From positions 49,331 through 113,330 of the forward strand of contig CAZSDP010000013.1 in NCBI GenBank assembly GCA_964605665.1: a DNA stretch of 64,000 nucleotides. The letters are read 5' to 3'. Each line of letters opens with the position of its first letter. Position 1 is the stretch's first letter. The notes under the pieces were generated by a model that saw nothing but the letters and a program-made list of their open reading frames with translations, had not been told where the DNA came from and made no database searches. The stretch comes from an uncultured Planctomycetia bacterium (GTDB lineage Bacteria; Planctomycetota; UBA8108; UBA1146). Shown here piece after piece: positions 2,270-62,665 of this stretch. A program made the translations under genes and the position numbers.

Positions 2270-2275
2270 CAATCG

Positions 2276-12166: not shown

Positions 12167-13014
12167 CGAGCTTCCTCTCCGGTGACCTAAGGGTGTGGGG
12201 CGTGCAGGCTGACGTCAGCCGTATCGCATCACCACCCGAGATCGGGATTGCGGGTTCCCCTGGGGAACGAGACCCGTGCAAATTGATGGCCATGACCCGC
12301 CGTTGCCTCAGCGGGTATCGTACATCCGGAGGTACTCAGGAGACTCCTGCTCCCACATTTCCCCGGAATCTCACATTTCGGCGCCCGATCCTGCGGGGTT
12401 CCCCTCCCCCGGATCGAGTCGATGAATCGCCCCATTTCAGTCTTCGCGGACGATCCGCGAAAAGACTTGGCGCATCCTCCGATATCGGTCGATCGACCCA
12501 GTTCTCCGGAGGGTTCGAGGAGAATATCGGGCCATGAGTTCCCCCGCCACCAACTGCGAGGAGAGAAGTGCCAGATCCTTCCCCAAGGCGAAAATCGCCA
12601 GAGGAATCTCACGATCCCAGAAATTCGGCATCCGGGATGAATCGGGAGTCAATTCGCACCCACCGCTTCGCTAGATTCGGCTATTACACCTTGAATCGGC
12701 CGATTCTCACCCAATCTGGGTTTTTCTGCTTCGAGGATCTCGTCGGAAGATGGCGCTCCGAGCCCTCTCCGACCACCACCGAGCCCCCCGATCCCGATTT
12801 CGAGACGTTGACTTCGCTCCTGGGGTGCATATTCTCTTCCCACCCCGTCGATTTCTTGGGCGGGGGCACTGTATTTTGAAGCCCCGAAAACGGTAGGTCG
12901 GAGCGGGAACCCCGCCGAACGGGAGGAGTTGCGACTTCCCTCGTCCGCTTTCCCATTCCCACAAATCGCGGGGAACGGCCATCGAGAAGGTGGCCAAATC
13001 GATCGTGGCCCTGA

Positions 13015-31715: not shown

Positions 31716-33209
31716 TCATTGAAGTCCTTGAACCACCAGTTCGAGAATCCCATCCCCATCGAGATCTGCTGGTAACGCGACGTGGGCTTGGAAAGAAGTC
31801 CCCTTGGGACGCTGGCCTGCCGCTTCGAATCCAAAGTCCTTCAAGCCAGAGTCATTCGTCGCGAGAATTTGAATCAGGTCGATCGCACCATCCCCATCGA
31901 TATCTCGCAGAGGTCGAAGTCCTGGGTCAGCGCCAACGCGCCACCCCTCCGAAGGGACTTCACTTTGATCCCAGGGGAGAAGAGGAAGACCTTCTGGAGA
32001 GAACCGCAAAGGTCTCAATGGTCGCTCTCCCACTCTCTGACCGAGGAGGCCGGGAACCCGAAAACCCTCTGCGTCTTCTTTCCCCGGCAATATCTCTAGG
32101 GGATGCTCGGGAGAAACCAAACCGATAGCAGGCCCCTGCGCTTCCTCGAGCAGTGCCGATTCACCAAAGTGATAGACAGAGAGACCGCTTCCCAAAGGGG
32201 ACACTCTCTCCGGATCGGATGAGGTCGGCCAAACGATGATCTCGTCCCGACCATCGCCATCAACATCGGCGACATCCCAAGCCGTGATTCCCAGCGGAGC
32301 CACCCGACGCAATGCTGGAGCAACCGGATGGGGAACTCCCTGATCGTCGACGGAGCAGATCCAAAGATCGGAGTCTGCTCGCCGTCCACCACCATAAAGG
32401 CTGTGGACTCCTGCGGCATCCGCAGCAGTGAGCTGGGCTAGCTTCGCAGGATGATCTCCACCGGGATAGAGCGCGGACATCACCGACTGAGTCGCTTTAC
32501 CGTGTCCTAGTCCAAGAAGATGTCCCATCTCATGGAGCAACACTGTGCTGAGTTCAACGATTTTAGGTCGCCGAAGCGCAACCCCCTGCGGCGAATGCGA
32601 GCCCTCCTTCGATCCCGCTGAACCTTGAGCAACTGTCCATTCCAAATCCGCATTCAAATGGATGAAGCCGGTCCCTTCCCAGCTGGGGTCGGTCGCATGA
32701 GCGACCCCACCGTCCCAACCGAGAAAGGGAGAGCAATCATCATGTCGACCTCGTCGCCAAGAGATCACGAAGTCCGGTTCGACTCCGTCCTCAGCCTCTC
32801 GAAACTGCACCACTCCGGTTCGTGCCCACTGGGCTCCCATCGCCTCAATCGTCTCGCGCACCTGGCTCTCGGGAAGTTTCTCACCTTCCGGCTCGTAGCT
32901 CCAAGTCAACCGCGATCCACCAGCAGCCCTTCGTCCGCGAACCTCAAAGGGTGGAAACCAAGGTCCGCGATTCGGCCATGAGGAGAGTTCTTGATCGCCA
33001 GGAGACCCGAGCACGAAATCGAGCAGAGCGTCGTGCTCAGGCTCCGCTCCGCTCTGCTCCTTCTTCGAATCGGAATCTGAGCCGGCATTCGGCCCACAGC
33101 CACCACTTAGAACAACGGTGCACAGAAGGAGGAGCACCCAGAACCCGCTCTGCAGGCAGCTGACTCGGTGAGCGGAGTTGTCAGTCAGAATCAAGGCGAA
33201 CCCGTGCAT
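31716..33209 (-). CDS. Matrixin (M10) metalloprotease lipoprotein with FG-GAP-like repeats
   Basis: HEMGHLLGLGH zinc motif, Met-turn SVMSALY, structural Zn H-D-H-H (HDDCSPF..GVAHA..IHLN), DVDGDGRDE/DIDGDGAID/DLDGDGILE repeats, lipobox LSGGC. Start uncertain (33209-33344). Confidence 0.85.
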   Translation of the reverse strand: MHGFALILTDNSAHRVSCLQSGFWVLLLLCTVVLSGGCGPNAGSDSDSKKEQSGAEPEHDALLDFVLGSPGDQELSSWPNRGPWFPPFEVRGRRAAGGSRLTWSYEPEGEKLPESQVRETIEAMGAQWARTGVVQFREAEDGVEPDFVISWRRGRHDDCSPFLGWDGGVAHATDPSWEGTGFIHLNADLEWTVAQGSAGSKEGSHSPQGVALRRPKIVELSTVLLHEMGHLLGLGHGKATQSVMSALYPGGDHPAKLAQLTAADAAGVHSLYGGGRRADSDLWICSVDDQGVPHPVAPALRRVAPLGITAWDVADVDGDGRDEIIVWPTSSDPERVSPLGSGLSVYHFGESALLEEAQGPAIGLVSPEHPLEILPGKEDAEGFRVPGLLGQRVGERPLRPLRFSPEGLPLLPWDQSEVPSEGWRVGADPGLRPLRDIDGDGAIDLIQILATNDSGLKDFGFEAAGQRPKGTSFQAHVALPADLDGDGILELVVQGLQ

Positions 33210-33392
33210 CTCACCCCTGATCTTCAACAGCAGTCTTCTGATGCAGCTTGACCAGGCCCGACGAAAGGACCCCTGATCGAGCGCGAAGGGCACAGAGAAA
33301 CCGATTCTCGAGTCGGGCACAAGATGTGAAAGCGCCCTGACCAACTCACAGCTGGCCAGGGCACGTTGAAATCAATGAGGGATCAGCACGCT

Positions 33393-34541
33393 TTAAAGAT
33401 CTTGGAGGAACATCAGCAATGCTTGTTGATCGGCAGTAAAGAGGGCCTGGTAGGCCATTCTCGAGTTGAGCGCTTCGTCATCGTGGATCAAGATCGCGTC
33501 CTCGAGAGTTGTTGCCCGACCATCGTGAAGATATGGCGCGGTATTTCGGATGCCCCAAAGCGGGGGAGTCCGATACATGCCAGATGGAGCGTCCGGTTCC
33601 TCCATCCCCCGGAATGAATCGGGATAGATGTCGTGAAGAAGCAGATCGGAGTAAAGAGGCACGGGGCCCTGAGATCCGGTGAGGCTTGGAATGTGACACG
33701 TCGCACAGCCGATCGAGTTGAAGAGGGCTTCACCTGTCGCGATCGCTGGGTCAGTACCTCCAACACGTGGCGGATAAGCCAAGTTCTCCAGGTAGAAGGT
33801 CAGGTCTTCGAGATCACCGGCGGAGACTTCTGGATCGAGCACTCCATCGGAATCGGAGAGCAACCCAAAACCTCTGCCGTTGTCGCTGACGGTCAGCCCA
33901 ATCTCCCCGCTGAGAGCATCGTGAGAAAAGTCATCAACTGTCGGAACCTGAGCCTTCCAACCGAACTTTCCAACTTCCATCACCCCCCCGACATTGAGGA
34001 GGCGCGCCACACCGCGAACCCCGTCACCATCGGTATCGAACGGGTCTTCATTCGCGAGGATCGTCGCATCGGAAATCGTCTGGATCAGGCCGATACCCAA
34101 GGCTGACGGAGTCTGCCGCTGCTCAAAAACATCGGCAGTGGGGTCAGCTTCTTCTCGTCGGGGAGAATCCATACGACGGAGCTTACTGGCGACCTGTCCC
34201 CCGGGGAGATTCAGGAATGGCCCATTCCCGTTGTTGTCATTCGCAAAGCGGAAGACGTTCACGTCGAGTCCACCCGCCGCTCCGATGACCGGCTTCTGGT
34301 GACAGCTACGGCAAGAATCCGCGTTCAAGTCGGGTGTACCCAACCCTTGGGAGAGTCGCCAATCTCGATCGAACACCTTACGGCCTCGGATCCATTGGTC
34401 GAGATCCGCCCCAGTCAACGGTACCGGCGGTCCCCCTTCAGTTCCTGCGGGGGGCACTGGTGTCGTATCGTCGATGATCTCGGCATGAAGTGCCGTCACG
34501 ACCAAACTGAGGAACACTAAACTCAGAATCGAATTCTTCAT
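33393..34541 (-). CDS. Di-heme oxidoreductase family protein (DUF1111, bCcP/MauG-like), secreted
   Basis: Two CxxCH motifs (CRSCH, CATCH), GKFGWKA, LYSDLLLHD, YRTPPLWG..PYLHDGRATTLEDAILIH; signal peptide; TAATG coupling to the upstream paralog. Confidence 0.9.
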   Translation of the reverse strand: MKNSILSLVFLSLVVTALHAEIIDDTTPVPPAGTEGGPPVPLTGADLDQWIRGRKVFDRDWRLSQGLGTPDLNADSCRSCHQKPVIGAAGGLDVNVFRFANDNNGNGPFLNLPGGQVASKLRRMDSPRREEADPTADVFEQRQTPSALGIGLIQTISDATILANEDPFDTDGDGVRGVARLLNVGGVMEVGKFGWKAQVPTVDDFSHDALSGEIGLTVSDNGRGFGLLSDSDGVLDPEVSAGDLEDLTFYLENLAYPPRVGGTDPAIATGEALFNSIGCATCHIPSLTGSQGPVPLYSDLLLHDIYPDSFRGMEEPDAPSGMYRTPPLWGIRNTAPYLHDGRATTLEDAILIHDDEALNSRMAYQALFTADQQALLMFLQDL

Positions 34542-36016
34542 TAGAGTGCCTCCAAAAACTGAATAACTAAGTCTTGTTCAGCAGCGCTCAAGTTGGAGTA
34601 GGCATCTCTGATCGCCTGCGCTTCTCCACCATGTAACAGAATCGCTTCGTGCATCGATCCCGCACGTCCGTCGTGCAACCAGGGCCCATGGAATCGCACT
34701 CCCCAAAGGGGTTGAGTGCGAAACTCGCTGGCGGTCGAATCGAGAGGATCGATCGTTGAGAACTGCGGAGCCCCCATCGAGATCCCATCTGCGAGTATCG
34801 GTCCCATATCGTGGAGCAAAAGGTCAGTGTAAGCCTCGAGGTTGCCCACCGCTGAAGGAAGCGTCGGCAAGTGACACGCGACACAATTCAAGCTGTTGAA
34901 GAGTGCTTCACCCTGCTGCTCCTCTGAATTGAACGGCTTGCGAGGCGGCGGAGCGACGAACTTGTTGAAAACGAGGACGTCGGCAAAGTCAGAAGGGCTA
35001 AACTCGGGATCAGGAGTTCCATCATTGTCGAATGTTGCGGCGTCGAATCCCGCTCCTACCTGGAATTTGTAGCTGACGATTCCATCGCTTCCAAAGACCG
35101 GCACCGTCGTGATCCCCATCTGGTTGAACGCTGCGCCGCGGATAAACGCCTCAAGGAAATTCGCCTGCAACTTGTATCCGAAACGACCGAAGTTTCCGAA
35201 GCCGTCGGTATTGTAACGACCGCTGATTCCATCCCCATTCGAGTCATTCGGGTCGGAGTTCCCGATGATCGTCGTATTGCTGACAAACTCGAAGAGTCCA
35301 ACCCCAAAGAATGGTGGAGCATTTCGATGTGCGGGGTAGACCGGTTGTCCGAGTGCTTGAATCGAACCGGAGACCGGGATCGAGGGTCGATTGCCGTCGA
35401 TCTCGCCGTAGCTCGGCATCACCAAGCTCGGGACTCCCGCGACATGGGTTTGATTGGGAGGGTCACCGACCCCAACCAAGAAGAAGTTCCTGTATACGGG
35501 AGCAGAACCACCGATGGTGGGATGACTGTGGCACGCTTCGCAGCTTCCCGCATTGAAGAGAGGTCCCAACCCCTCTTCTGGCGTGAAGACCTTGGCCATC
35601 AACTCGCGGCCGTTCAAGAAGGAGCTGAACTCGTCTGCGTTCAAGCCAGGAATCGCGTCACCCACATTACACGGGGCGTGTGCGTCGCAATCGAGACTGT
35701 CAGAGGTTGGATCGGGCCCACAGACTCCAAAGGGAGCACCGGGAGGTGGCCCTCCAGAAAACAAGAAGCCGAAGAGATAAATGGGGTCCGCAAGGTTGGT
35801 CGTGCCATCGTCATTGGTGTCCATCGCATCCACGCAATAGACGACCTCGCCGAGGAACAAGACCTCAAGAGACGCGACACCATCGGCAATATTGACGATG
35901 TTGTCGGTATTCACGTCTCCGCGAATAAAGTCACGCCCTTCGACAGCTCCCATTCCAAAAATGAGCACTGCGAAAAAACAGACTACCCAGCAACTCATGG
36001 TGGGTCGTAGTTTCAT
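34541..36016 (-). CDS. Dockerin + di-heme oxidoreductase family protein (DUF1111), secreted
   Basis: Signal peptide, dockerin FIRGDVNTDNIVNIAD..CVDAMDTNDDGTTNLAD, CEACH and CVACH, GRFGYK, YTDLLLHD, FRTQPLWG..PWLHDGRA. Start 36016 (the ORF extends to 36076). Confidence 0.88.
   Translation of the reverse strand: MKLRPTMSCWVVCFFAVLIFGMGAVEGRDFIRGDVNTDNIVNIADGVASLEVLFLGEVVYCVDAMDTNDDGTTNLADPIYLFGFLFSGGPPPGAPFGVCGPDPTSDSLDCDAHAPCNVGDAIPGLNADEFSSFLNGRELMAKVFTPEEGLGPLFNAGSCEACHSHPTIGGSAPVYRNFFLVGVGDPPNQTHVAGVPSLVMPSYGEIDGNRPSIPVSGSIQALGQPVYPAHRNAPPFFGVGLFEFVSNTTIIGNSDPNDSNGDGISGRYNTDGFGNFGRFGYKLQANFLEAFIRGAAFNQMGITTVPVFGSDGIVSYKFQVGAGFDAATFDNDGTPDPEFSPSDFADVLVFNKFVAPPPRKPFNSEEQQGEALFNSLNCVACHLPTLPSAVGNLEAYTDLLLHDMGPILADGISMGAPQFSTIDPLDSTASEFRTQPLWGVRFHGPWLHDGRAGSMHEAILLHGGEAQAIRDAYSNLSAAEQDLVIQFLEAL
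35669..35929 (-). repeat. Dockerin-type repeat 1 (4-Cys variant)
   Basis: FIRGDVNTDNIVNIAD..LF..CVDAMDTNDDGTTNLADPI..LFSGGPPP..CGPDP..LDC..C. Confidence 0.8.
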
Positions 36017-36568
36017 TCTAGGCCTTCCGCACGTGTCATCTCTGCTCGATTCGCTTTGCACAAATCGCTGGCTCACCCATCAATGATCACGCGAAATTCG
36101 AGAATTCCTCAACGACTTCTGCGGAAAGTACCGGCGGGATGGCTGAGCAGGTCTTCCCTTCCCAGCCTTTGGACTTTTCCAGAAGGTAAATCCGTCTACG
36201 AACGCTTCGTGCGTTGAGAGAAGCCCGAGCGCAGTCAGAAATCAGAGAACCTAAATCAGAGAATCAAGAAGTCTCTTTCTCTCGCTATCTCAAGCCCCCC
36301 ACCTGTCTAATTTTACCGGAACGAAGGCTCTCCGTGAACCTAACGATCAAAACTCGCCTCTTCATGCCGAGGAGAACGTTCTCAGCGAGTAAAAGTTGCC
36401 GGACTCGATTTCCGAGTCCGACACTCTCTTTCCGAAGACCGCACTCTTTCGGAGAGGTGCAACTCCGGAGAATCCCCCACAAGCCATTACTAACAAAGGA
36501 CTTGTGCGATCAAGAAGACGCCGGCCTCTCCCTTGCCTTATTCACAAGGCGACTGGAAGGAGTCCTCA

Positions 36569-43893: not shown

Positions 43894-44982
43894 TCAAAAA
43901 CAGGTGCTCTGATCACACATCAACAGATCCTCAGGAACTGCTGGCTGCCCATCGAATCCACAATCGGGAAATGGAGCGGGAATCGTCGCGCCTATCGGGG
44001 AGAAGAGCGCGGTAAGAAGCAGAATCGCGTCCCCGATATCAATCACACCATCGTTGTTCGCATCTGAGCTATCCCAACAAGATGCCACCACCGCCGGAAC
44101 TCCGGGCGACGGAAAGAGAAAGCTCAAGATATGGATCGCATCGGCGATGTTCGTTCCCCCATCGACATTGGAATCGCCACGGATGAATCGCCCCTCCGGG
44201 CCATCCCCGAGCCACTGAATGCCGGTCAAGGAGGTCCCTCCCAAAACGTTGGAAAACACCACTTCGCCGGTGGGCCCAATCTCGAAGTATGTTCCGGTGA
44301 CCGCGTCGAGAATCAGGAACGTCTCCGTCAAAACTCGATAATCGAGTGAACAGGGTTCGATCAACGAAGTCTGTACTGAAACATTCGAGATTTCATTTCC
44401 CTGGAGGTCGAGGAGGTGGATCGTATCGTCGTCTCTACCCACTACTGCGATGAAACTATCCTGCGCATCGATTCCCCCAATCTCATAGGGTAAATCGATC
44501 GACTGCGATACAGACCCACTGGCGTCAAAGCGCAGGACTCGACCAGAACGAGTCGCCATCAGCAACTCACCGGAGAGGATCCCAAGGTCTACAGGGCATT
44601 CGAAATTGACAGCATCGCAGATCACGCCTGGGATACTCACGACATCAACAATCATTCGATTGGCTCGATCGAGCCGCCCGAAGTTGGGAGCCACTCCCGT
44701 CGCGTTCGATCCGACGACGTAGATCTCGTCGTCGAGTACGGCCATCCCAGCGACTTGACCGAAATTGGCGGGGGCCGTGAACAACTCGGTCCCGGTCACC
44801 ATTCCATCACCACTATGCTGGCTAATTGCAAAGTCTGCTTGAGGAGACATCGGCGCGGAATCTGCGCTCAGAATCGAATCGGTGTCCAATTGGATCTGCG
44901 CTTCGACCCCCCCCACCACACAAGAGAGGAGAGCAAAACCGACAGTGGCTAAGCCTTTGTTCAAGATTCGAGTCGTCTGCAT
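43894..44982 (-). CDS. Secreted beta-propeller-like protein with C-terminal dockerin
   Basis: Signal peptide ending VEA-Q; repeated short beta blades (GMAVLDDEIYVVG, GGIDAQDSFIAVV, SLDYRV..FLILD); dockerin FIRGDSNVDGGTNIAD..CWDSSDANNDGVIDIGD. Confidence 0.7.
   Translation of the reverse strand: MQTTRILNKGLATVGFALLSCVVGGVEAQIQLDTDSILSADSAPMSPQADFAISQHSGDGMVTGTELFTAPANFGQVAGMAVLDDEIYVVGSNATGVAPNFGRLDRANRMIVDVVSIPGVICDAVNFECPVDLGILSGELLMATRSGRVLRFDASGSVSQSIDLPYEIGGIDAQDSFIAVVGRDDDTIHLLDLQGNEISNVSVQTSLIEPCSLDYRVLTETFLILDAVTGTYFEIGPTGEVVFSNVLGGTSLTGIQWLGDGPEGRFIRGDSNVDGGTNIADAIHILSFLFPSPGVPAVVASCWDSSDANNDGVIDIGDAILLLTALFSPIGATIPAPFPDCGFDGQPAVPEDLLMCDQSTCF
43897..44187 (-). repeat. Dockerin-type repeat 2 (4-Cys variant)
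   Basis: FIRGDSNVDGGTNIAD..LF..CWDSSDANNDGVIDIGDAI..LF..PAP..CG..LMC..C. Confidence 0.8.
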
Positions 44983-45060: not shown

Positions 45061-46434
45061 TCATGCAAAGAGCCCGAGTGGGGTAAATCCAACCGGATCC
45101 ACCGCCGCCGCTTGAGAGTATCCCGGGATGATCTGTTCGATCAGAGCTGGATCATCGCCGAAGTAACTCTGAAAGATCTCACCGAACACAGCTCTGAAGT
45201 CGGTCCGGTGAGCAACGTATCGGGAATTATCAGAGAAGAGGTCCCCTGTTGTCCAGCTAGTTGCATCGCAATTGTAGACCCCCCCCACCACCGATCCTCC
45301 GGTAATCAACATCGTTCCCGCAGAACCGTGATCTGTCCCTCCGCTGCCATTTTCGCGGGATGTTCGGCCAAATTCGCTCATGACCACCACCAGGACGTCC
45401 TCCCACTGATCGGCGAGATCTCGGGAAAGAGCGCGCAGGCCCTCTGCGAGTTGTGCCAAGAGAGTGGGGTGATCCGCGCTTTGGTTAGTATGTGTGTCAA
45501 ATCCCGAATGGTTGAGGCCAAGGATCCGAACTGGAGTCCGTTTGAGGAGCATCGCCGTTTCTGCCAGCCGGTCACCGAGAGTCCCCGTCGGATAAACCGC
45601 ACCATTTGCTGGGACGTAGGCTCCCTGCTGCAGAGCCGCCTGCACGACGTCGATCGACTGTCCAAGCTGCACACCGGTGGCGTGTAGGAGCGATCGATAG
45701 GGCTTGGTGGAATCGTCTTCCGGGCCTCCGTAAAGCCCGTAGAACCCGTCTCCATCCGCGCCCCCAGTCGTCGACGGGAGCATCCCGAGAAAACGATCGA
45801 GCTCCGCTTGGCTTCCAGGAAATGCGTAGTCGGTACTCCTGGGGAATGCAGGGACTGGAATATCACCTTGGTATGCCATCGGTAGACTTGAATCGACCGC
45901 AGCCGCCACCAATGGTGCGTTACCCAGATCAAGATTTGCGGCGAGCTTTCGGTACAACATTCCTTCCCGGAATGCTTCTTCACCTGGCTTGCCTGTTTCC
46001 CAGAACAACTGCCCGCTGAAGTGACTGCGGGTCAAGTTCTGATAGCCAACTCGTTGGATAATCGCGAGCTGCCCCGGCCCCGCAACTCCATTCAAGGAGC
46101 TGTGATTGTAGATCTCCATCAACGGTTCCAGCCCTGGATTGAGCTGAGCGAATCCATTGCCAAGGTCGATGGCAGAGCTCTCTGGAATGAACAAAGACGG
46201 TCGGTTTGCTAGCGAATACTCCGCGTCTCCGCGCGGAATAACAGTGTTCACCGAGTCGTTCCCACCCCGTAAGAAGATCGTCACCATCTTGCGTGTCGGT
46301 GGAATTCCGCCCGCAATCAATCGACGAGTGAGCCATGCCGGTGAAGTCGCTGAAGCTCCCAAGCCGAGTCCGAGACTCGCCCCGAGACTTCGTAACATAA
46401 ATTTTCGTCTATCCATCATCGGTCGTTCCTTCAT
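45061..46434 (-). CDS. DUF1501 domain protein, Tat-exported
   Basis: Twin-arginine DRRKFM signal, IFLRGGNDSVNTVIP, GFDTHTNQ, SEFGRT..ENGSGGTDHG, DFRAVF; ATGA-coupled to DUF1800. Confidence 0.9.
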   Translation of the reverse strand: MKERPMMDRRKFMLRSLGASLGLGLGASATSPAWLTRRLIAGGIPPTRKMVTIFLRGGNDSVNTVIPRGDAEYSLANRPSLFIPESSAIDLGNGFAQLNPGLEPLMEIYNHSSLNGVAGPGQLAIIQRVGYQNLTRSHFSGQLFWETGKPGEEAFREGMLYRKLAANLDLGNAPLVAAAVDSSLPMAYQGDIPVPAFPRSTDYAFPGSQAELDRFLGMLPSTTGGADGDGFYGLYGGPEDDSTKPYRSLLHATGVQLGQSIDVVQAALQQGAYVPANGAVYPTGTLGDRLAETAMLLKRTPVRILGLNHSGFDTHTNQSADHPTLLAQLAEGLRALSRDLADQWEDVLVVVMSEFGRTSRENGSGGTDHGSAGTMLITGGSVVGGVYNCDATSWTTGDLFSDNSRYVAHRTDFRAVFGEIFQSYFGDDPALIEQIIPGYSQAAAVDPVGFTPLGLFA

Positions 46435-49400
46435 TGGAAACTCCAGCGAGGCATACTCAACATCAGCCCAACCAGTTTCTGCACTCGATCCTGATAGTCT
46501 GGAGCCGTCGGATCGAAGGGGCCCATCGTCCCATCCGGTAAAGTCTGGGCGAACCGTTGCAACAAGAGGCGCTCTGTAGCATTCATTGTCCCCTGGTAGA
46601 GAAGATCGTCGAAGAGATCGATGATCTCAAATTCAGACTGAGCATTTGCAGCATTGAGGATCTGTATCGGATCCCAGCTGAATCGGGCACTGACATTGTC
46701 CGCCACCGTTCGAACGAAGTTGACTCGCTCGAGCAAGGAAGTGGTTCCGATCCAGCGATCTCCACGTTCTGGCCAGCCATCGGGATCATCCCGATCAAAG
46801 AGGCTCATGCCCATACTTTGAAGAGTGTCGGTCAAACTACGCCCATCGAAATCTGCGTCGAGTGCACGCATTGTCGAAACCATGTGCTCAAAAGGTGTTT
46901 TAACTTTCGCTCGGCGAGACAATTCACTGCGGAAGACACTACCGACATCATCCACAGCCAAAATTGTACGAACGACGGTTTCTATGTTGCCGGGTGGGCT
47001 CGTCGAATACCACGCAGCGATCGCATCTGCGAGAAGAGCCCGCAATGGAAGTGGCGCGGAGAGATCATGCGCACTCGCTAGATCGATTTCGTCGGAGATG
47101 AGAAGCCCAATCAACTTGACGCTGATGAACTCGGCCGCAGAGGGGTGCTGAACAATCTGATTGATCACATCGAGGCCATCTTGGACGCCGTCGGCGCCGA
47201 GGCGCCCAGCTGGAATCGTCAGCTGATGGGGTGTCCCCGCGAAGATGATTTTCTCCGTCGTGTCATGCTGTGCCGGGTCAAACCGGAAAATCCAATGCCC
47301 TTGTCGGTCATCCACATCGAGATATCCAGGGCCGGGGGACCAGCGATAAAGACGCGGCAAACACGAGAGATCACCATTCGTGAGGTTCACATTGTGAACC
47401 TGAATTGCCAGAACATTTGTCCCAACCAACAGCTCTTCACGAAACCGATCGAGTGAAACAATGAGGGGATCTCTTGTCACTTCGTGCCCAGAGCTGAACT
47501 CGTTGAAGGCGGGAGGTGTTCCCGTTGCGCTCATCGAGCCCGACCGCGCAACTTCACGGCCATTGAGGTAAACCACCACACCGTCATCGTAGGCGACATG
47601 GAGTTCGAGAACTTCTGGAAAGTGAATGTCGCTGAGAGTGAAGGACCTGCGAAGGTAGACGCTACCGTAATTCCCTTGCATGTCGGTGAGCACGGTCGCG
47701 TCGTCCCCATCCCCAAAGCCGATACCGGTTGGTCCCTGTAACCAGGCGGAATCATCGAATCCGATCTCAGCCCATGCGGTGGTCGGTTCTCCACTCAATC
47801 CAGGGGAAGGCTCGGCAGTTCCCTTCCAGTAATTCCAAACATCACCGATCTCGATGATGGGGGTTTCTAAGATCACATTCGGCTCGTCAATCTGGGGATT
47901 GATCGCGTTGGCAGGGAATGGTTGAAGTGACTCGAAGGGAACCTTACTGACTGTCCACCCAGTAAAGCAGCGAGACACTTCTTCGACATCTGCCTGGGTA
48001 TATCCATTGTCTACGCCGAGTCCGAAGAGCTCCAAAATCTCCCGGGCATAGTTCTCATTCGGCTGTGCCGCCAAATTCAAAACCGAATCGAGATAGATGA
48101 GCATCGATGGGCTCGTTGCAGAGTAAAGCAGCAGATCTCCAAAATTCCCGAATGCATTGTCGGTGAAGAACTGGAATTCCTCTCGCTCGATCTCCGCGGC
48201 TTCACGCCGAGCCTGTCGAGATTCAATGACGCGCTCGTCATATCGATCTCTCGACCTCTGGAGAACGTCCTGAACTTTGTCGAGATCTGTTGTGAAGTGG
48301 TTATCCCAGAACATCGCGAGAACATTTCGCAGCTGATTCTCTGAGTAACGCGATCGGGCAAATGCAAAGCGCTGCAAACTCTCTTTATCGCGCATCATCG
48401 AGCGAGAAGGAAATGTCGTGGGTTCTTGTACAACCACTCGTGGATCGAGAAAGAAGTCCCCTTGAGTCAAATTTCGATTGTGCCCCTGTATCGCGAGGAT
48501 GTTCTCTCCCGGCACCAACAGCGAACTCGGAATCACGAAGTACTCCGGAATACCTGGTCCATGCTGGGATGTGGTTCCCTCATCGTGTGCCGGAAAAGTG
48601 GCCGTCAGATTAGAACGACCGACTTCAGTCCCATTCACCCAGGCCACAAACCCGTCATCGTAGTCGCAGTAGAGCGCCACAGCCGGAAGTGAAGCGGGAT
48701 CTGGAACAAAGAATGAGGCCCGGCATGCAATCGAGGTGTAGTTCCCCTGCATGTCGAGAAGTAACGTACCGCCACGACCAAAAGAGAGCCGAAATGGGGC
48801 CGGCGCTATCTCCCAGGTCGAATCATCAAAAGCGGGCAACTGCCAATCGAGTGGGAATGGTGAGGTCCCCTTCTGATACCGAAAGAATGACTCCTTCACC
48901 AAAATCTCACGGTCTCTCGTGCGTTCAAATGTGGTCAAGGATGCTGCTTCACGTGTGAGCAAATCAGCATTCAAACTCTCGTCGATCCCCAGAATCTGCT
49001 GATCGATCCAAGGTCCAAATCCGGTGGCGATCAGCTGATCAGTGTCGCCCGGCCTGGCACCGAAGGTGGCCCTCGCCAATAGATGGCCTGCCTGCAACCG
49101 CTCAGGGTCCGGTCCGCCACATGGAGGGAAATTACACTCCAGTGGATCGAGACTTGGATCAGGACCGCAGTCGATCGGACCGGGAGGAGGAGGAGGGGCG
49201 CCACCGGAAAAGATGTAGGCGAGAACATTGATCGGGTCTGAAATCGTCAGCGACCCAGAGTCATCCACGTCTGCCGCATCTCGGCAATCGACATGCCAGC
49301 CGAGGAACAAGTGACCGAGAACCACGACGGCGTCGCTGACATCGACGGCGCCATCATTGGAGGCATCACCTCGACGAAACTCGGGTTCAACCGCACCCGC

Positions 49401-49460
49401 ACTCGACAAGGAACCGAGAAGGGCAAAGAAGAGCACCCAAACACAAAATCGACACTTCAT
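46431..49460 (-). CDS. DUF1800 family protein with N-terminal dockerin and two inserted galactose-binding-like modules
   Basis: HLLARATFG, LRNVLAMFWDNHF, MLIYLD, PNENYAREILELFGLG, FDPAQHD, KVKTPFE, DPDGW. Dockerin FRRGDASNDGAVDVSD. Two FDDSxW..DMQGNY..YDDG..NG.EV modules. Confidence 0.88.
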   Translation of the reverse strand: MKCRFCVWVLFFALLGSLSSAGAVEPEFRRGDASNDGAVDVSDAVVVLGHLFLGWHVDCRDAADVDDSGSLTISDPINVLAYIFSGGAPPPPPGPIDCGPDPSLDPLECNFPPCGGPDPERLQAGHLLARATFGARPGDTDQLIATGFGPWIDQQILGIDESLNADLLTREAASLTTFERTRDREILVKESFFRYQKGTSPFPLDWQLPAFDDSTWEIAPAPFRLSFGRGGTLLLDMQGNYTSIACRASFFVPDPASLPAVALYCDYDDGFVAWVNGTEVGRSNLTATFPAHDEGTTSQHGPGIPEYFVIPSSLLVPGENILAIQGHNRNLTQGDFFLDPRVVVQEPTTFPSRSMMRDKESLQRFAFARSRYSENQLRNVLAMFWDNHFTTDLDKVQDVLQRSRDRYDERVIESRQARREAAEIEREEFQFFTDNAFGNFGDLLLYSATSPSMLIYLDSVLNLAAQPNENYAREILELFGLGVDNGYTQADVEEVSRCFTGWTVSKVPFESLQPFPANAINPQIDEPNVILETPIIEIGDVWNYWKGTAEPSPGLSGEPTTAWAEIGFDDSAWLQGPTGIGFGDGDDATVLTDMQGNYGSVYLRRSFTLSDIHFPEVLELHVAYDDGVVVYLNGREVARSGSMSATGTPPAFNEFSSGHEVTRDPLIVSLDRFREELLVGTNVLAIQVHNVNLTNGDLSCLPRLYRWSPGPGYLDVDDRQGHWIFRFDPAQHDTTEKIIFAGTPHQLTIPAGRLGADGVQDGLDVINQIVQHPSAAEFISVKLIGLLISDEIDLASAHDLSAPLPLRALLADAIAAWYSTSPPGNIETVVRTILAVDDVGSVFRSELSRRAKVKTPFEHMVSTMRALDADFDGRSLTDTLQSMGMSLFDRDDPDGWPERGDRWIGTTSLLERVNFVRTVADNVSARFSWDPIQILNAANAQSEFEIIDLFDDLLYQGTMNATERLLLQRFAQTLPDGTMGPFDPTAPDYQDRVQKLVGLMLSMPRWSFQ
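49119..49379 (-). repeat. Dockerin-type repeat 3 (4-Cys variant)
   Basis: FRRGDASNDGAVDVSD..LF..CRDAADVDDSGSLTISDPI..IFSGGAPPPPP..CGPDP..LEC..C. Confidence 0.8.
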
Positions 49461-49501
49461 GACCAAACCTGCCCAATTCAGGACTCTGATGATCTCGCCG
49501 G

Positions 49502-49756: not shown

Positions 49757-51124
49757 TCAGCTGACGATACGTAGGTCTTCCACAATCGCGCCGGGAAGTA
49801 GCGCCCCCCCCAACGATCGTCGTCCGTAGGAGCGTCCATCGGAAATTTGCTCTCGATCCGCGGTCAAACCGATCAAGCGCTCTCCCAGTAGATCGAGCAC
49901 CGAGTCGTCGAATCGAGCGACCTCGATTGGTTCCGCGATCTCTCCATCGCGCACTCGAAATGCAGCAAATCGAGTCAAGCCAGTGACGCTGGCGGTAGCC
50001 CGGTCGGAGAGATTTAGATAATGAAGATACTCGAGCCACAAACCGTCTCCCACTCGCTCAGCCAACTCTTCCTGCTGAAGGCTTCCCCCAGAAATTTCAA
50101 AGGACTGCGGCATCTCCAGAGCTTCAGATCCCGTCGTTGGCACGTTGAACTCCATGGAACTACGGCCTGAAACCAAGGTGCTGCACGCTTGACCTCCATC
50201 GAAGAGAGGAACTTGCGGAGGGCGGCGTAGTCCTTCCGAATTGAAGGGTGCAATCCAACCCAGCCGAGTACTCTCCTGCATGGAGAACTCTTGGGACAAA
50301 CTTTGGTCTTTGTGCAAAGAGACGAAGGGGCTCGTTCCGTTTCGCAAAGCAAGTTGAGAAAATGCTCCTCGGTACCCGAGAGTCTGCATGACCATCTTCC
50401 ACCCAACAGGAGCGATGTAGGCCCGATACCGACCTGGCTGAAGAGACGAGCGATTCTCCCGCAACTTCTTAGCGTGCTGCTCAGCTCGTTGAATCCGACG
50501 CTCAAATGATCCGCGATCCCATTCAGACCCGCCGAGATAGACTTTAGCCGCACGGTCTTCTCCGACGCAAAGCGACAGTTCGAGGTGATAGGTGTTTGTC
50601 TCATACCAACGCCTCAAACCGATCGAAGTCGCAACCGCTTCGACAACCCGCCCCGCCATGTAGTGCCCGACCCACTCGGCATGCGATGTCTTGGAGCGAT
50701 CCAAAACCTCAGACATCAATTCATGGCTCGGCGGCAGTCGATTCACCTCTCGATCTTCGGTCGACTCGACTGAATCGGGAAAGACGAGGTGCGGATCTTC
50801 TGGAACCTCTTCGAGAAGGGAGGAGAGTTCTCCCACCAGCTGTCTCAGTGGAAATCGGTCCTGAGCGATCGAACCGACAAGATCGACGGAGCCAGCGACC
50901 TGACGTTGCCCCTCGATCAACTGCACCCGCAAATTACGTTGTGTGATCTTCCCGCATTGACGAATCACTCCACCATTGAACCGAACGGAATCAGAATCTT
51001 CCGCCGTGAGCCGACAAGTAAAGGCCTGCTCCCTCTGGAGGAGGTCGGTGAGATAAGCCACCACATCGTGAAACCACGCCTGCACGGTGTCTTTAGCCCT
51101 TTCCGGTGCCGAAAACTTCGACAT
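49757..51124 (-). CDS. TldE/PmbA-like metallopeptidase partner subunit
   Basis: EDSDSVRFNGGVIRQCG, PGRYRAYIAP, WLEYLHYLNLSDR..TGLTR; no HExxxH; follows tldD with overlap. Start uncertain. Confidence 0.8.
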   Translation of the reverse strand: MSKFSAPERAKDTVQAWFHDVVAYLTDLLQREQAFTCRLTAEDSDSVRFNGGVIRQCGKITQRNLRVQLIEGQRQVAGSVDLVGSIAQDRFPLRQLVGELSSLLEEVPEDPHLVFPDSVESTEDREVNRLPPSHELMSEVLDRSKTSHAEWVGHYMAGRVVEAVATSIGLRRWYETNTYHLELSLCVGEDRAAKVYLGGSEWDRGSFERRIQRAEQHAKKLRENRSSLQPGRYRAYIAPVGWKMVMQTLGYRGAFSQLALRNGTSPFVSLHKDQSLSQEFSMQESTRLGWIAPFNSEGLRRPPQVPLFDGGQACSTLVSGRSSMEFNVPTTGSEALEMPQSFEISGGSLQQEELAERVGDGLWLEYLHYLNLSDRATASVTGLTRFAAFRVRDGEIAEPIEVARFDDSVLDLLGERLIGLTADREQISDGRSYGRRSLGGALLPGAIVEDLRIVS

Positions 51125-52577
51125 TCTTGAAGAAGCAATAAGGGCTGGAGTGTCCCACTTCGATCATCTGATTCGGCTCTCCCTTGCCGCAATTGGGGGT
51201 TCCAAGCACCGTGACCGTCGACCGGTCTCCAACTGCCGCCAGTGAGCGCCAAAAGTCACTGGACCGGCCTCGATATCCTGGGTTGCGCACCATGGTCGTT
51301 CGCTCGCCGTCTTCGATGAGCCAACCCACTTCGCATCCAAACTGGAAGTTACGACGTGAATCATCGATCGACCAAGATGAATTCACATCCATCAGGACGC
51401 CGTTCCCTGCTTTCTGAAGCAGGGTTTCGTAGGAGTCTTCCCCAGGTTCCAGATTGATGTTTGCCATTCGATCGATCGGTGGTCGATTCCAGCTGCAAGC
51501 GCGTGAGCACGAAACCCCCGCCACATCGAGTCTCTGCTGACTGACCGCTCCTCCGATGCCGCGCTTGAGGATCCCCCCTTCGATCAGATGCGTCCGCTCA
51601 GCTGGAGACCCTTCGTCATCGAAGGCGTAACTGGCAAACTCATTGGAGACCGTCGGATCAAAGGTGACATTGAGTAAATCAGATCCATAGCGCAGAGAAC
51701 CAAAATCTTCGCGACGCACGAAAGTCGTTCCTGCGAAGTTCCTCTCGTCACCGAGAATTCGATCGAGTTCCAATGGGTGCCCGATCGACTCATGGATCTG
51801 AAGGATCATCTGGGCTGGTCCAAGGACCAAGTTCTGAACCCCATCGGGACAGAGTGGAGCACTCAATAGCGCGATCGCCTCGTCTCTCAACTGAGCAGGA
51901 ACAGAATCAAATTCGAGTTCGTCGAGTGCTTCTAACCCACTCTGACGACAAGCCCCTCGCCCCCCCAGGGACCGCTGTTGCGTCTCGCCTCCGTCCGAAG
52001 CGACGGCGAGCATTCCGGGCGCGATCGTTTCAATCTGTTGAGAGACTTCGATATTGTCAGTTGTGACAAATCGAGTCTCCGTTCGGCTGTACTCCAGAGT
52101 GGCGCGCCGATCTCGTATCCTGGAATCTGCGGCGAGAATCTCATCCGCTTCTCGAAGTCGATCGATCTTTTCGCGAGTACTCCTCGACTGCCAAGAGTCC
52201 CTGACCGAGGTGCGATAGCTGCCTGAGGCCTGAGGACGCTGCAGTGTCGAAAAGTTCGCCACGCTGCGCCCCTGGCTCTGAATCGCCCAATGGTGAGCCT
52301 CCCGCGCTGCCTGATAGAGTCCCGCGAAAGTGAGATCGCTCGTCGCCGAATAACCGATCCCACCTTGATCGATGACGGTGACCATGACGCCTTGCGAGTG
52401 ATTGAGGCTCAACGGCTCTAGCGTGCCACGACGAATCGAAAGCCCTTCTCGTCTTCGCTCCACCCAACGAAGGGAGCAGAACTCGACCTTGGGAGCGATG
52501 CGCGCCAGAGTCTCCGTCAATTCTTCAGGGCTGGCGAGACGATCAGCAGGGCGGTTCCGCGGAACTTTCTCCGACAC
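51093..52577 (-). CDS. tldD: TldD family metalloprotease
   Basis: HESIGHPLELDRILG zinc motif, FDDEG, IDRMANINLEPG, SIDDSRRNFQFGCE, PNCGKGEPNQ..VGHSSP. Confidence 0.9.
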   Translation of the reverse strand: MSEKVPRNRPADRLASPEELTETLARIAPKVEFCSLRWVERRREGLSIRRGTLEPLSLNHSQGVMVTVIDQGGIGYSATSDLTFAGLYQAAREAHHWAIQSQGRSVANFSTLQRPQASGSYRTSVRDSWQSRSTREKIDRLREADEILAADSRIRDRRATLEYSRTETRFVTTDNIEVSQQIETIAPGMLAVASDGGETQQRSLGGRGACRQSGLEALDELEFDSVPAQLRDEAIALLSAPLCPDGVQNLVLGPAQMILQIHESIGHPLELDRILGDERNFAGTTFVRREDFGSLRYGSDLLNVTFDPTVSNEFASYAFDDEGSPAERTHLIEGGILKRGIGGAVSQQRLDVAGVSCSRACSWNRPPIDRMANINLEPGEDSYETLLQKAGNGVLMDVNSSWSIDDSRRNFQFGCEVGWLIEDGERTTMVRNPGYRGRSSDFWRSLAAVGDRSTVTVLGTPNCGKGEPNQMIEVGHSSPYCFFKNVEVFGTGKG

Positions 52578-57149: not shown

Positions 57150-58517
57150 TCAGGGACAGGCGCTCGTATCGTTGCAATCTAGGGGATCGGTATCAGAAGG
57201 GTCGACTCCACAAGAGAGTCCCGGCGCTGGAGGAGGCGCCCCCCCGACGAAGAGATAAGTAAACACGTAGATCGCGTCGGCGAGATCGAGAGCTCCCGAA
57301 TCATTGGAGTCTGCGGCATCTATGCATCCCAAGGCTCCCATCAGGAACAAGAAGTTCAAGATCGTCACCCCATCTGCAACATTGACCATGGCGTCGACGT
57401 TCGCGTCACCACGAATGAACTGCTCCAAGGGAATGCATTCGACGGTCTCGCAAATGAGGGTGGAATCGACGCCACACGAGCCCGCAACGGAGACGCAAAC
57501 ATCGTGTGGGCCATCGCTGGGAAGAGTGACCAAGGCACTGTTTCCCGCCACTCCCGATTGAACAACCGACCCGTCGACCGTGATCGTTGCGGTGTACGGG
57601 GGAAGCGGCCCGGTGAATCCAGACCAACTCAGACTGACTTCACAACCGGTCGGACCTTGAGCAGGCTCAGCGGTCAGAATCCCACCCGAAGGTGCTGGAT
57701 CGACCGTGCAATCAGCATCGCAACAAGTGGAAACCGAAGGCTGACCACCGATGATTGGGGTCAGGCAAACTTGACGACTTCCGCTTTGACCGGGAAGCAC
57801 CGTTCCATCGTCGGGCAGGCTATAAGTGGTGGCGGTTCCGGAGAGGGTCGTCGCCAATACACCGTCGATGCGCACTTCGATAGCGTCGTAGACGAAAGCA
57901 TTGGTCCAGGAGAGCTCGAAGTTACAAGCACACGGGCTTCCAGCTGCCACGCAGTTCAATCCGGTGATCGAGGGATCGAGAATGGTGATTTCCCCCGAAA
58001 GTTGATCGGGAATCACTTGGGCGCTAGACGGTTCAACGACAATTACCTCGACCGGTGGAACTCCGATCGTTGCACAAAAGTTGACGGTGCTAACCGAGCC
58101 GATGCCGCCCAGTGGTGAGTATGTCGCTCGTGCAAGCTCATAGTCCGCCCCGGGAAGTAGAGGGGAACAGAGCATAAAGCAAATGATCACCCCTTGGGTG
58201 AAACCGCCACTCTCCATGTCGAGAGACTCGAATTCCGGTGCACCCCCCCCATTACTTGTCTGGGTAGTGTCTCCGCTGGTGATCGCCTGCAAGGTCAGCT
58301 CTGCACTACTGTGACAAACTCCGTATGACCAACCGCTCAAGTTGATGCCACTGGAGCTGTCGAGAATTACGCCCACTTCCGCTTCGATACCTGGTGGCGT
58401 CATCGCACTCTCGAGCTGTATTTGATATGCATTCTGTTTTGCATCACTCACACTACAAAAAGCCAAGAGTGAAATGAGTCCGATGGCCACTTTGGTGTAT
58501 CGCGGTTTCCCGTGCAT
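57150..58517 (-). CDS. Secreted cohesin-like + two Cys-rich Ig/FN3-like + dockerin protein
   Basis: GGAGGAG RBS before ATG 58517, signal peptide. Beta-sandwich VGVILDSS..LSGWSYGVCH..GFTQGVII..YELARATY..VNFC resembles a cohesin. Two LSW-containing modules. Dockerin FIRGDANVDAMVNVAD..CIDAADSNDSGALDLAD. Confidence 0.7.
   Translation of the reverse strand: MHGKPRYTKVAIGLISLLAFCSVSDAKQNAYQIQLESAMTPPGIEAEVGVILDSSSGINLSGWSYGVCHSSAELTLQAITSGDTTQTSNGGGAPEFESLDMESGGFTQGVIICFMLCSPLLPGADYELARATYSPLGGIGSVSTVNFCATIGVPPVEVIVVEPSSAQVIPDQLSGEITILDPSITGLNCVAAGSPCACNFELSWTNAFVYDAIEVRIDGVLATTLSGTATTYSLPDDGTVLPGQSGSRQVCLTPIIGGQPSVSTCCDADCTVDPAPSGGILTAEPAQGPTGCEVSLSWSGFTGPLPPYTATITVDGSVVQSGVAGNSALVTLPSDGPHDVCVSVAGSCGVDSTLICETVECIPLEQFIRGDANVDAMVNVADGVTILNFLFLMGALGCIDAADSNDSGALDLADAIYVFTYLFVGGAPPPAPGLSCGVDPSDTDPLDCNDTSACP
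57153..57419 (-). repeat. Dockerin-type repeat 4 (4-Cys variant)
   Basis: FIRGDANVDAMVNVAD..LF..CIDAADSNDSGALDLADAI..LFVGGAPPPAP..CGVDP..LDC..C. Confidence 0.8.
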
Positions 58518-58760
58518 AACGCACTCCTCCAAACCGAGTGTTGGGCGTTCTGAAAATCACCCTATCAGCGCTCCTCGAATCGGGAAGGACAAGACTTTGC
58601 GCCTTCGTCTTCCACCGATTGAGAGAGCGTCAATTCAACAAATCAACGACAACCAAGACTCGTTCTAACTCACCCCTTTGCGCTCAATCTTCTTCATGCA
58701 GATCTAAACGCGATTTGATAAGGGAACGTCTTGAAGATGAGTGGAAAAGTCGTTGCAGTC

Positions 58761-59309: not shown

Positions 59310-59422
59310 CCCGAACCGTGGTACTTTCTCAATCTGCAGGCTGCCGAGAGCAGATCGCAATCGGAACGGAGCGATGGCACTCCGCCGATTCTCCAAGAGC
59401 GCAGGTGAAAGGTCGGGAGTTC

Positions 59423-62400: not shown

Positions 62401-62665
62401 TGGACGAGGTTGGCTCGCCGACTTGGCGAAGAATCGCGAGGCAAGAGAAGCAGCGCTGCCACACGACTGGAATCGTGTTCGAGTCCGGGCAATCGGTGGA
62501 TCGATCGAAACATGGATCAATGACGTCCCGGCGGCGAAGCTGTGGGATACAAAAGCACTCGAAGGAATCATCGGGCTACAAGTCCACGGAGTCGGAACAC
62601 GCCAGGATCCCCTCGAAGTACGCTGGCGGAAGATCAGATTACTCCCCCTCGATCAGAAAGACTGA
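59423..62665 (+). CDS. PVC-type heme-binding dehydrogenase-like protein: beta-propeller + HEAT repeats + cytochrome c + DUF1080 (3-keto-disaccharide hydrolase-like)
   Basis: FRVAPGFRVELVAADPLIVDPITIDFDEHGRLWAIE, DLDGDG..FLTGL, RFRPV..GPEGALYVVD, HEAT region, CAVCH with distal MPG, C-terminal WIDLFDGTSLKGW..DFELQYEFK..NSGVQIRS..WN..GLQVH. Start uncertain (59318-59456). Confidence 0.85.
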   Translation: MNSPQKPLQLFMAFFTVLFLWQNPVDSQSGDRAGEAQPENWREWEVPPAPPLSPEEQLRSFRVAPGFRVELVAADPLIVDPITIDFDEHGRLWAIELRAYMPNVDGEGECDPLGTVVVLEDLDGDGTYDRRNEFLTGLVNPRALALVDGGVLVGEPPYLWYCRDVDGDLRSDWKMEITRFGSPNPDHLEHTENGLLRNLDNWLYCAKSSRRFKFSRGEDDVPYVKEEPTAFRGQWGIASDAQGRLHYNGNSSYLYGDPWPAEYLLRGSVCGRAIGQSPGIGERLVDDEAVFSIRVNPGINRGYQPGMLRKDGRLARTTSVSGLAIERGGCFPTEYRGNAFIPEPAGNVVANFRSKDHRGELHRTQRLFPDEDWGSRAFLASSDERFRPVDCAFGPEGALYVVDLYRGILQHRQYVTSYLRSQILERGLDRPVGLGRIWRVVPENWSPPKQTLDQHFRDLPACVRSLSHESGWIREVAQRKLIEANDPTIVPLLNAKVSSGPTIGRIHALWTLEGLQSQDVETIRTALAFSDAQLRIQALRVAERSIGSDQEERVLDALLELTEDPDLQVRRQLMFSLGAFDRERARRAMLELVLADSGDPIIRLALASGIKGHHESLIRSLLESRDQELRALDRLLFVELTASWIATDRSRIDRALELAHTYFDQSSEEVLAILDGVLLILERRGTPPAVLNLPPDLLSRTERSGALTARLERLANRLRWSQIDLNNAEADSPLTPLPEAYAGFEERGAALFPTCAVCHGVTGEGIQGLAPPLRNSQFLNSDSALVRIIRDGLTGALQVDGQEWDLTMPGHSADARFDHVGVASLITWLRRQWGHRAPPISAETVEEIFQRDSTRNLPWTAAELFDTDSSESAKAASAFKVNRLEADHSWIDLFDGTSLKGWSTQGGRAQYRVEGDSIVGQSVPNSPNTFLCTDRSFSDFELQYEFKVDPALNSGVQIRSRVGEDGIVRGLQIEIDVDLNRQRFWSAGIYEEGGRGWLADLAKNREAREAALPHDWNRVRVRAIGGSIETWINDVPAAKLWDTKALEGIIGLQVHGVGTRQDPLEVRWRKIRLLPLDQKD

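Follow-up and report, generated by a model that had tools for sequence, protein, structure and literature searches.

The 64,000-nucleotide stretch of DNA analysed here (the window), part of contig CAZSDP010000013.1 from an uncultured Planctomycetia bacterium, carries on its reverse strand a gene for a large exported DUF1800 protein, followed directly by a gene for a DUF1501 protein. In the literature, the DUF1800-DUF1501 pair is described as operonic, linked to twin-arginine translocation (Tat) and of unknown function (PMC5122149). An initial annotation, made from the letters of the window, had proposed that the DUF1800 core is interrupted in this case by two homologous lectin-like modules, that a dockerin stands at the N-terminus, and that these features point to a glycan- or surface-associated substrate. 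The DUF1800 gene lies in a single uninterrupted open reading frame (ORF; 46431..49466, − strand), which encodes 1009 amino acids (aa) when read from the ATG at position 49460. The gene had been recognized correctly, and its product is 1009 aa plus a stop codon rather than the 1010 aa claimed. The Pfam DUF1800 model (PF08811) matched the protein with 287.4 bits, against a cut-off of 26.1, in three separate stretches, the best of them spanning aa 417-506. The two inserted segments, each of ~165–175 aa, were aligned with one another by blastp at 35% identity over 205 columns (E=2e-25), confirming that the core is broken by two homologous inserts. All of the peptides quoted in favor of this architecture were found in the translation: WQLPAFDDSTW (aa 206), LDMQGNYTS (aa 235) and YDDGFVAWVNGTEV (aa 267) in the region of insert 1, and WAEIGFDDSAW (aa 563), TDMQGNYGS (aa 592) and YDDGVVVYLNGREV (aa 624) in the region of insert 2.

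In relatives that lack the inserts, such as P0042, the core segments are only ~16 and ~4 residues apart at the two insert sites, so that each insert is a clean domain insertion placed in what is otherwise a short loop. Insert 2 occupies a loop of ~8 residues separating the invariant TGW motif from the invariant HD..K motif. The window protein keeps every residue that is invariant across 42 diverse DUF1800 members (alignment A7), a set composed of the histidine of FWxNHF, the NENYARE..EL motif, Y, D, TGW, HD, K, K, R, G, W and R. Searches of the PDB with the full-length sequence and with 10-sequence and 42-sequence profiles returned no solved sequence relatives of the DUF1800 core; in these searches and those made for DUF1501, the only structures matched were dockerins and a trivial Tat-signal hit. 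AlphaFold modeling of the full-length 1009-aa protein from its single sequence gave a predicted local distance difference test score (pLDDT) of 36 and was uninformative. The features of the two genes, together with the gene that follows them, are collected in Table 1.

Table 1. Features of the DUF1800-DUF1501 locus in window coordinates. HMM, hidden Markov model.
Feature	Coordinates	Strand	Basis and remarks
DUF1800 gene	46431..49460	-	ATG at 49460, TGA at 46431-46433; 1009 aa plus stop; Pfam DUF1800 2.8e-85
Putative Sec-type signal peptide, aa 1-24 (MKCRFCVWVLFFALLGSLSSAGA/V)	49389..49460	-	Read by eye; no RR motif
Dockerin-type module, aa 22-112	49125..49397	-	Family HMM 108.6 bits; two DxxxDGxxxxxD repeats and PPxP...CGxDPxxDxLxC extension
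DUF1800 core segment A, aa 121-185	48906..49100	-	Piece mapping onto relatives; alignments A1, A3
Insert 1, aa 186-347, predicted galactose-binding-domain-like beta-sandwich	48420..48905	-	Insert-family HMM 161 bits
DUF1800 core segment B, aa 348-534	47859..48419	-	Invariant FWxNHF, NENYARExxEL, TGW (alignments A3, A7)
Insert 2, aa 535-707, predicted galactose-binding-domain-like beta-sandwich	47340..47858	-	Insert-family HMM 185 bits; AlphaFold2 model
DUF1800 core segment C, aa 708-1009	46434..47339	-	Invariant H732, K737, K782, R865, G895, W903, R912 (A3, A7)
DUF1501 gene, 457 aa	45061..46434	-	Pfam DUF1501; ATG overlaps the DUF1800 stop
Exported 362-aa protein, no Pfam match	43894..44982	-	78 nt after DUF1501; C-terminal dockerin-type module (43942-44202)

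A profile of the insert module and an AlphaFold2 model were derived from an alignment of 48 copies (A2). The model of insert 2 is an all-beta sandwich (pLDDT 94.8; predicted template-modeling score 0.90), and comparison of this model with the PDB by Foldseek gave 268 matches at E<=1e-3. Among the 50 matches listed, nearly all were the N-terminal "sugar-binding" jelly-roll domains of glycoside hydrolase family 2 (GH2) beta-galactosidases and beta-glucuronidases. The best match had an E value of 5.5e-7, a probability of 1.0, a template-modeling (TM) score of ~0.57 and a root-mean-square deviation (rmsd) in the range of 4.5–7 Å, and identity to the relatives is 13–20%. At the level of sequence, the insert-family profile matched the N-terminal region of the GH78 rhamnosidase SaRha78A (3w5m; residues 155-233 and 256-354, E=4.3e-8) and, in the GH2 enzyme 7cwd, the N-terminus (1.5e-5), a weak but significant similarity in which the motifs FDDSxW and (D)DG..(Y)LNG.EV.R are common to the insert family and the SaRha78A/GH2 regions. 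CBM67, a carbohydrate-binding module that binds rhamnose in a Ca-dependent manner, was described in SaRha78A (PMC4690510); the stretch matched by our profile could be CBM67 or its neighbor domains. The modeling confirmed the predicted fold of the inserts as a galactose-binding-domain-like beta-sandwich, in line with the initial annotation, and the Foldseek check that had been proposed there returned GH2 N-terminal domains at E~5e-7. The lectin half of that description is less well grounded, since the nearest relatives are N-terminal domains attached to GH2 and GH78 enzymes and not proven lectins in their own right. On the model, "lectin-like" is a statement about fold and not about binding, and the window protein, unlike those enzymes, lacks a glycoside hydrolase catalytic domain.

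None of the 48 members of the insert family reached a Pfam-A family cut-off, isolated weak matches being seen in three only, and the isolated inserts gave only sub-threshold matches in Pfam and NCBIfam (BetaGal_gal-bd, 0.15; a rhamnosidase equivalog, 0.023). The 48-copy alignment contains invariant Trp, Arg, Asn and Asp residues. An acidic loop characteristic of the family (GxGDGDDATVL) is kept in insert 2 as GFGDGDDATVL, and in insert 1 of both the window protein and its orthologue the GYGDGDD acidic loop is gone (FRLSFGRGG). Insert 1 and insert 2 copies are ~40% identical both within and between proteins. The order in which the inserts were acquired is not readable, because the same identity is found in all comparisons, and a subdivision of insert 1 and insert 2 into separate orthologous lineages was likewise unsupported.

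Directly after the Sec-type signal, the N-terminal module consists of two DxxxDGxxxxxD Ca-loop/helix repeats and a PPPPPGP..CGPDPxLDxLxC extension. The window copy scored 15.9–16.5 bits against Pfam Dockerin_1 (PF00404), below the gathering score of 22.9. In contrast, a profile of 30 copies of the module taken from relatives matched solved dockerins in the PDB with E values of 4e-11 to 1e-7, and Dockerin_1 was matched by 24 of these 30 family copies, with a best value of 2.6e-9. The dockerin proposed at the N-terminus is thus upheld at the level of the family and not for the window copy by itself, and we designate the module dockerin-type, an assignment established from sequence only through the family profile. 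Two Ca-binding loop-helix repeats are also the feature that the module shares with the type I dockerins of cellulosomes and with the non-cellulosomal cohesin/dockerin assembly proposed in Planctomycetes (the "planctosome"; PMC6461901), the latter resembling our case further in its non-cellulolytic, marine setting in bacteria like those of the Planctomycetes-Verrucomicrobia-Chlamydiae (PVC) group. It departs from the type I dockerin in its N-terminal position, in the added Pro-rich, Cys-containing extension and in the sub-threshold score of the window copy.

Four copies of the dockerin-type module, all on the − strand, are present in the window: in the DUF1800 protein (N-terminal; 49125-49397), the 362-aa protein (C-terminal; 43942-44202), a di-haem DHOR protein (N-terminal; 35669-35941) and a 460-aa protein (C-terminal; 57156-57431). 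The module is generic in this organism, because three exported window proteins besides DUF1800 carry it. In relatives, 41 of 73 copies stand at the C-terminus. From its sequence distribution, this ~90-aa unit with its PPxP...CGxDPTxDxLxC extension appears to serve the organism as a general device for sorting or anchoring. The dockerin had also been taken as one of the pointers to a glycan- or surface-associated substrate, and a glycan was not supported by it: with four exported carriers in 64 kb, the module says that a protein is exported and possibly docked. Two relatives, P0048 and P0119, are built of 5–7 tandem copies of the module. The N-terminal 200 aa of the 460-aa neighbor (57150-58532, − strand) resemble a cohesin-like beta module by eye (…INLSGWSYGVCHSSAELTLQAITSG…), and this candidate was not supported, there being no Pfam match and no PDB sequence match.

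The partner gene was identified by Pfam DUF1501 (PF07394) with 107.8 bits against a cut-off of 27. The ATGA coupling of the two genes was observed as described, the DUF1800 stop and the DUF1501 start overlapping in caATGAagg. The DUF1501 N-terminus as translated reads MKERPMMDRRKFML; translation may instead start at Met6 or Met7, because cluster members of 451 and 452 aa occur. A twin-arginine motif (D-R-R-K-F-M-L, aa 8-14) is followed by a Gly/Ala/Leu-rich stretch, and its RR pair is invariant in eight homologues. The Pfam TAT_signal model matched two of the eight, the window copy not among them, and the motif is otherwise read from the sequence. Together with the Sec-type signal of DUF1800, which was recognized by eye, this gives both proteins a putative export signal. 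The motifs named earlier as likely metal ligands, GFDTH, SEFGRT and TDHG, are all present in the window DUF1501. Across the eight sequences the invariant positions include GGND (57-60), SH (137-138), DTH (313-315), EFGRT (354-358) and GTDH (366-369), and hence D313-T314-H315, E354-T358 and T367-D368-H369. PDB searches with the DUF1501 sequence and with an eight-sequence profile found no relatives, and alignment of the DUF1501 profile (A5) with Escherichia coli AslA and PhoA by hhalign was not significant (probabilities <1%). DUF1501 is a putative member of the alkaline-phosphatase clan of Pfam.

The pairing of the two genes proved very tight: of 51 related loci that could be evaluated, 49 have DUF1501 as the next gene downstream on the same strand, and so do all seven insert-bearing loci with downstream DNA. 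In the more distant relatives the genes are separated by 20–53 nt and lack the ATGA overlap, unlike in the window. The DUF1501 partners of insert-bearing DUF1800 proteins are 48–52% identical to the window DUF1501, whereas the partners of plain DUF1800 proteins reach <=34%. By sequence, the former constitute a branch of their own, and DUF1800 and DUF1501 therefore diversify together. With the canonical pair the window locus shares the full invariant core, the directly adjacent DUF1501 gene and the twin-arginine signal of DUF1501. However, canonical DUF1800 proteins are usually 470–560 aa long, and the short ones among them (alignment A7, loci L024-L082) mostly have an SRRxFL N-terminus, which suggests that they are Tat substrates too. 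The window protein has 1009 aa, a Sec-type signal instead, a dockerin-type module and two nested beta-sandwiches, and its DUF1501 falls in a separate branch.

Comparable decoration of DUF1501 partners is already known. In the PSCyt1/PSCyt2/PSD1 systems of Planctomycetes and Verrucomicrobia, as noted in 2012 by Kamneva et al. (PMC3542564), a Tat-exported DUF1501 is combined with a large exported PSCyt/PSD1 partner that sometimes carries F5_F8_type_C or Laminin_G_3 modules. In the window, by contrast, the partner is DUF1800 without a cytochrome c motif, the modules are nested in the core rather than appended to it, and they belong to a family for which Pfam has no model. What is new is the nested-module architecture of the orphan pair, which public annotation records only as "DUF1800 family protein".

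The recurrence of this architecture was examined by a HMMER scan of 1.84 billion representatives of 50%-identity clusters, which yielded 42,848 hits at E<=1e-3. The query was divided into six pieces, and these were mapped onto the best 150. The order dockerin-type module-core-insert-core-insert-core was found in P0001-P0005, P0010 and P0014, all 38–47% identical to the window protein except P0001, a 93%-identical cluster representative of the same length, 1009 aa. P0003 (1665 aa) has an N-terminal extension of ~650 aa before the dockerin-type module. Two inserts without the dockerin-type module were seen in P0006, P0007, P0012, P0013 and P0015. With its one- and three-insert variants, the insert-bearing architecture runs through P0001-P0016 and beyond. 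Within the best 150 hits, two inserts occur in >20 clusters, the second insert only in five, and a dockerin-type module but no insert in about eight. A third insert is present within the last core segment of P0008, whose cluster includes proteins from Verrucomicrobiota metagenome-assembled genomes (MAGs) annotated only as "DUF1800 family protein". Such third-insert variants (P0008; L014, 7227-11228) come from Verrucomicrobiota MAGs and measure 1213–1333 aa.

A genome scan identified a 63%-identical orthologue of identical architecture (L001), and further insert-bearing loci were L007-L015. The frequency of inserts in DUF1800, which the initial annotation had left to a survey, was obtained from a metagenome scan: nine of the 80 best-scoring relatives, out of at least 572 confirmed, bear inserts and 71 do not. 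The true insert-bearing share is probably below 9/80, since the 80 are the top scorers against a query that itself bears inserts. Taken together, the sequence comparisons indicate that the architecture is a recurrent, mostly marine subfamily of DUF1800-DUF1501 and not a one-off. The majority of the best 150 hits were not DUF1800 proteins; they are giant proteins with 2–7 copies of the insert module, often with a dockerin-type module at the C-terminus. As judged from sequence searches, the insert module is a very abundant extracellular domain without a Pfam-A model at threshold. The giant proteins (among P0017-P0150) reach 5206 aa, and in Draconibacterium (L002, 7923-11315) the insert module is found on a protein with CotH, a lamin-tail domain (LTD) and a type IX secretion system (T9SS) sorting domain.

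Because the window derives from a metagenome contig, we considered whether the gene might be an artefact, that is, a chimeric contig or a read-through of separate genes. The exact window DUF1800 protein is also encoded on contig KVRMV2_100036809 (L006; 137 kb, Joint Genome Institute (JGI) metagenome 3300002231), which is 99.9% identical to the window over 23 kb (window positions 36431-59451). The 13 mismatches and 9 indels in this alignment could be held to favor an artefact. However, the gene is one uninterrupted ORF, the 63%-identical orthologue has the same architecture, and the architecture is common to >20 representative clusters. Near-identical sequence is present in marine, microbial-mat and hydrothermal-vent metagenome runs, and short contigs from three independent runs of these three kinds span all insert/core junctions and the DUF1800/DUF1501 junction, so that the architecture is not an assembly chimera. 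We rejected the artefact explanation on these grounds and give it a vanishingly small probability. No RNA runs were found among the sequencing runs carrying the locus. On the JGI version, frameshifts split a TldD gene (51093..52577) and the 460-aa gene (57150..58532), both of which are intact in the window. Upstream of the DUF1800 start, at ~49501, one marine run (X1) contains a 17-nt insertion (GTCACTCACGCTGTGAA), and the putative promoter region near this position holds repeated GGGTGACTTC-like motifs.

The gene for the 362-aa protein possibly belongs to the same operon as DUF1501. It is not conserved: at the corresponding position L001 has an FG-GAP/HYR protein, which also ends in a dockerin-type module. 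When five distant insert-bearing loci were compared, no third gene was conserved around the pair. Their neighbors include an M56 peptidase, a flavin adenine dinucleotide (FAD) oxidase, a PSCyt/PSD protein, a xylose-isomerase-like protein, a TolC-like protein, valyl-tRNA synthetase (ValRS) and an acyltransferase, and the TldD/PmbA genes upstream in the window are common only to the close orthologue L001. L013 is the one locus of the five with glycan-related neighbors: a GH78 alpha-L-rhamnosidase and a MalK-type sugar ATP-binding cassette (ABC) ATPase flank the pair there (5271-7526, 12166-13422). The proposed glycan substrate gained no backing from genomic context, as no glycan-related neighbor is conserved in the five loci. 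Elsewhere in the window, tandem di-haem DHOR/RoxA-like peroxidase genes (33393..34541 and 34541..36076, within 31716-36076, − strand), the second with a dockerin-type module, adjoin a gene for an M10 matrixin/FG-GAP protein (31716..33344, − strand), and together these genes may be another exported enzyme set. A BatA/VWA/DUF4175 gene cluster (104-12166, − strand) and a gene for a DUF7133-HEAT-cytochrome c-3-keto-disaccharide hydrolase protein (59318-62665, + strand) are both typical of Planctomycetota and Verrucomicrobiota.

The reading we prefer, to which we assign a probability of about one half, is that DUF1800 and DUF1501 form an exported complex that is held by the inserts on a polymeric substrate and tethered by the dockerin-type module. 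The architecture that underlies it is near certain, and targeting to a glycan is put forward more tentatively, at somewhat less than an even chance. According to this proposal, the two proteins would act together outside the cytoplasm. DUF1501, whose export by Tat implies folding, and probably metal loading, in the cytoplasm, would be the catalytic, cofactor-bearing subunit, as suggested by the combination of Tat export with invariant Asp/His motifs, and its metal site would be furnished by the invariant Asp, His, Thr and Ser motifs. DUF1800 would be the substrate-handling partner, because it is DUF1800 that gains binding modules, as PSCyt/PSD1 partners do. The role of the two beta-sandwich inserts would be to keep the complex attached to a substrate that is polymeric or surface-bound and most probably a glycan or glycoconjugate, with insert 2 placed beside the invariant TGW and HD-K motifs. 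Through the dockerin-type module the complex may be anchored at the cell surface or on a cohesin-like receptor, as would apply to the other exported carriers. The proposal is consistent with the occurrence of the insert module mainly in giant multi-copy proteins with CotH, LTD, T9SS sorting or C-terminal dockerin-type modules.

Several observations weigh against this proposal. The flanking genes are not conserved, a glycosidase adjoins the pair in only one of the five loci (L013), and the scanned window ORFs yielded no cohesin. Neither the DUF1800 core nor DUF1501 has solved sequence relatives in the sequence and profile searches of the PDB, and catalysis was assigned to DUF1501 from a reading of its motifs and from its putative clan membership in Pfam, with the AslA/PhoA alignments not significant. 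The insert family has no Pfam family (0/48 at threshold) and no known ligand. Its closest structural relatives are enzyme-attached N-terminal domains and no characterized lectins, the match itself is moderate (TM ~0.57, rmsd 4.5–7 Å), and the conserved acidic loop is lost from insert 1 of the window protein. Alternatively, the inserts may not be carbohydrate binders but structural, protein-protein or adhesion modules, such as spacers, oligomerization units or binders of protein or mineral surfaces, in which case they would say nothing about a glycan substrate. The top matches are GH2 N-terminal domains, which are mostly structural parts of the enzyme. In giant adhesin-like proteins the insert module is accompanied by CotH kinase, lamin-tail and dockerin modules, loss of its acidic loop is variable, and glycan-related neighbors are not conserved. 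However, carbohydrate-binding modules predominate in the fold class, the profile extends to the N-terminal region of the CBM67-bearing enzyme SaRha78A (PMC4690510), and the invariant Trp, Arg, Asn and Asp residues are typical of sugar sites; we consider a purely structural or adhesive role rather unlikely, although it is the most serious of the competing explanations.

The division of labor could also be the reverse, with DUF1800 as the enzyme, the inserts completing or gating its active site in the manner of the GH2 N-terminal jelly-roll, and DUF1501 as an accessory or maturation factor. Many polar residues are invariant in the 42 DUF1800 members (H, NENYARE..E, D, HD, K, K, R, R), all of them kept in the window, and insert 2 interrupts the ~8-residue loop that joins TGW to HD..K. 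On the other hand, 71 of the 80 loci lack inserts, so that the core works without them, and DUF1501 likewise possesses invariant Asp/His motifs as well as a Tat signal, the latter being typical of cofactor-bearing enzymes. We regard this arrangement as improbable, clearly more so than structural or adhesive inserts. An extension of the docked, insert-held complex that we favor is equally speculative: insert-bearing pairs may be extracellular enzyme complexes that marine PVC-type bacteria dock on a scaffold or on their cell surface. The insert would then represent a new and very large family of carbohydrate-binding modules, and it would bring a polysaccharide or glycoconjugate with ester modifications, such as sulfate or phosphate groups, to DUF1501 acting as a metallo-hydrolase. 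Its chances appear slim.

DUF1800-DUF1501 is among the more widespread bacterial gene pairs without a known function, for which the literature notes the operon structure and the Tat signal. Although the architecture reveals no chemistry, the gain of binding-type modules inside the DUF1800 core, together with a co-diversifying DUF1501, supports DUF1800 as the substrate-handling subunit, and the subfamily hints at a polymer- or surface-bound substrate without proving one. The inserts are small, well-folding domains (pLDDT ~95 for insert 2 in the model) and offer a cheap experimental handle for ligand screens. Should the complex be docked and the inserts constitute a new carbohydrate-binding family, the orphan DUF1800-DUF1501 system as a whole would gain its first class of substrate. 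The insert ligand, once defined, would annotate thousands of giant surface proteins.

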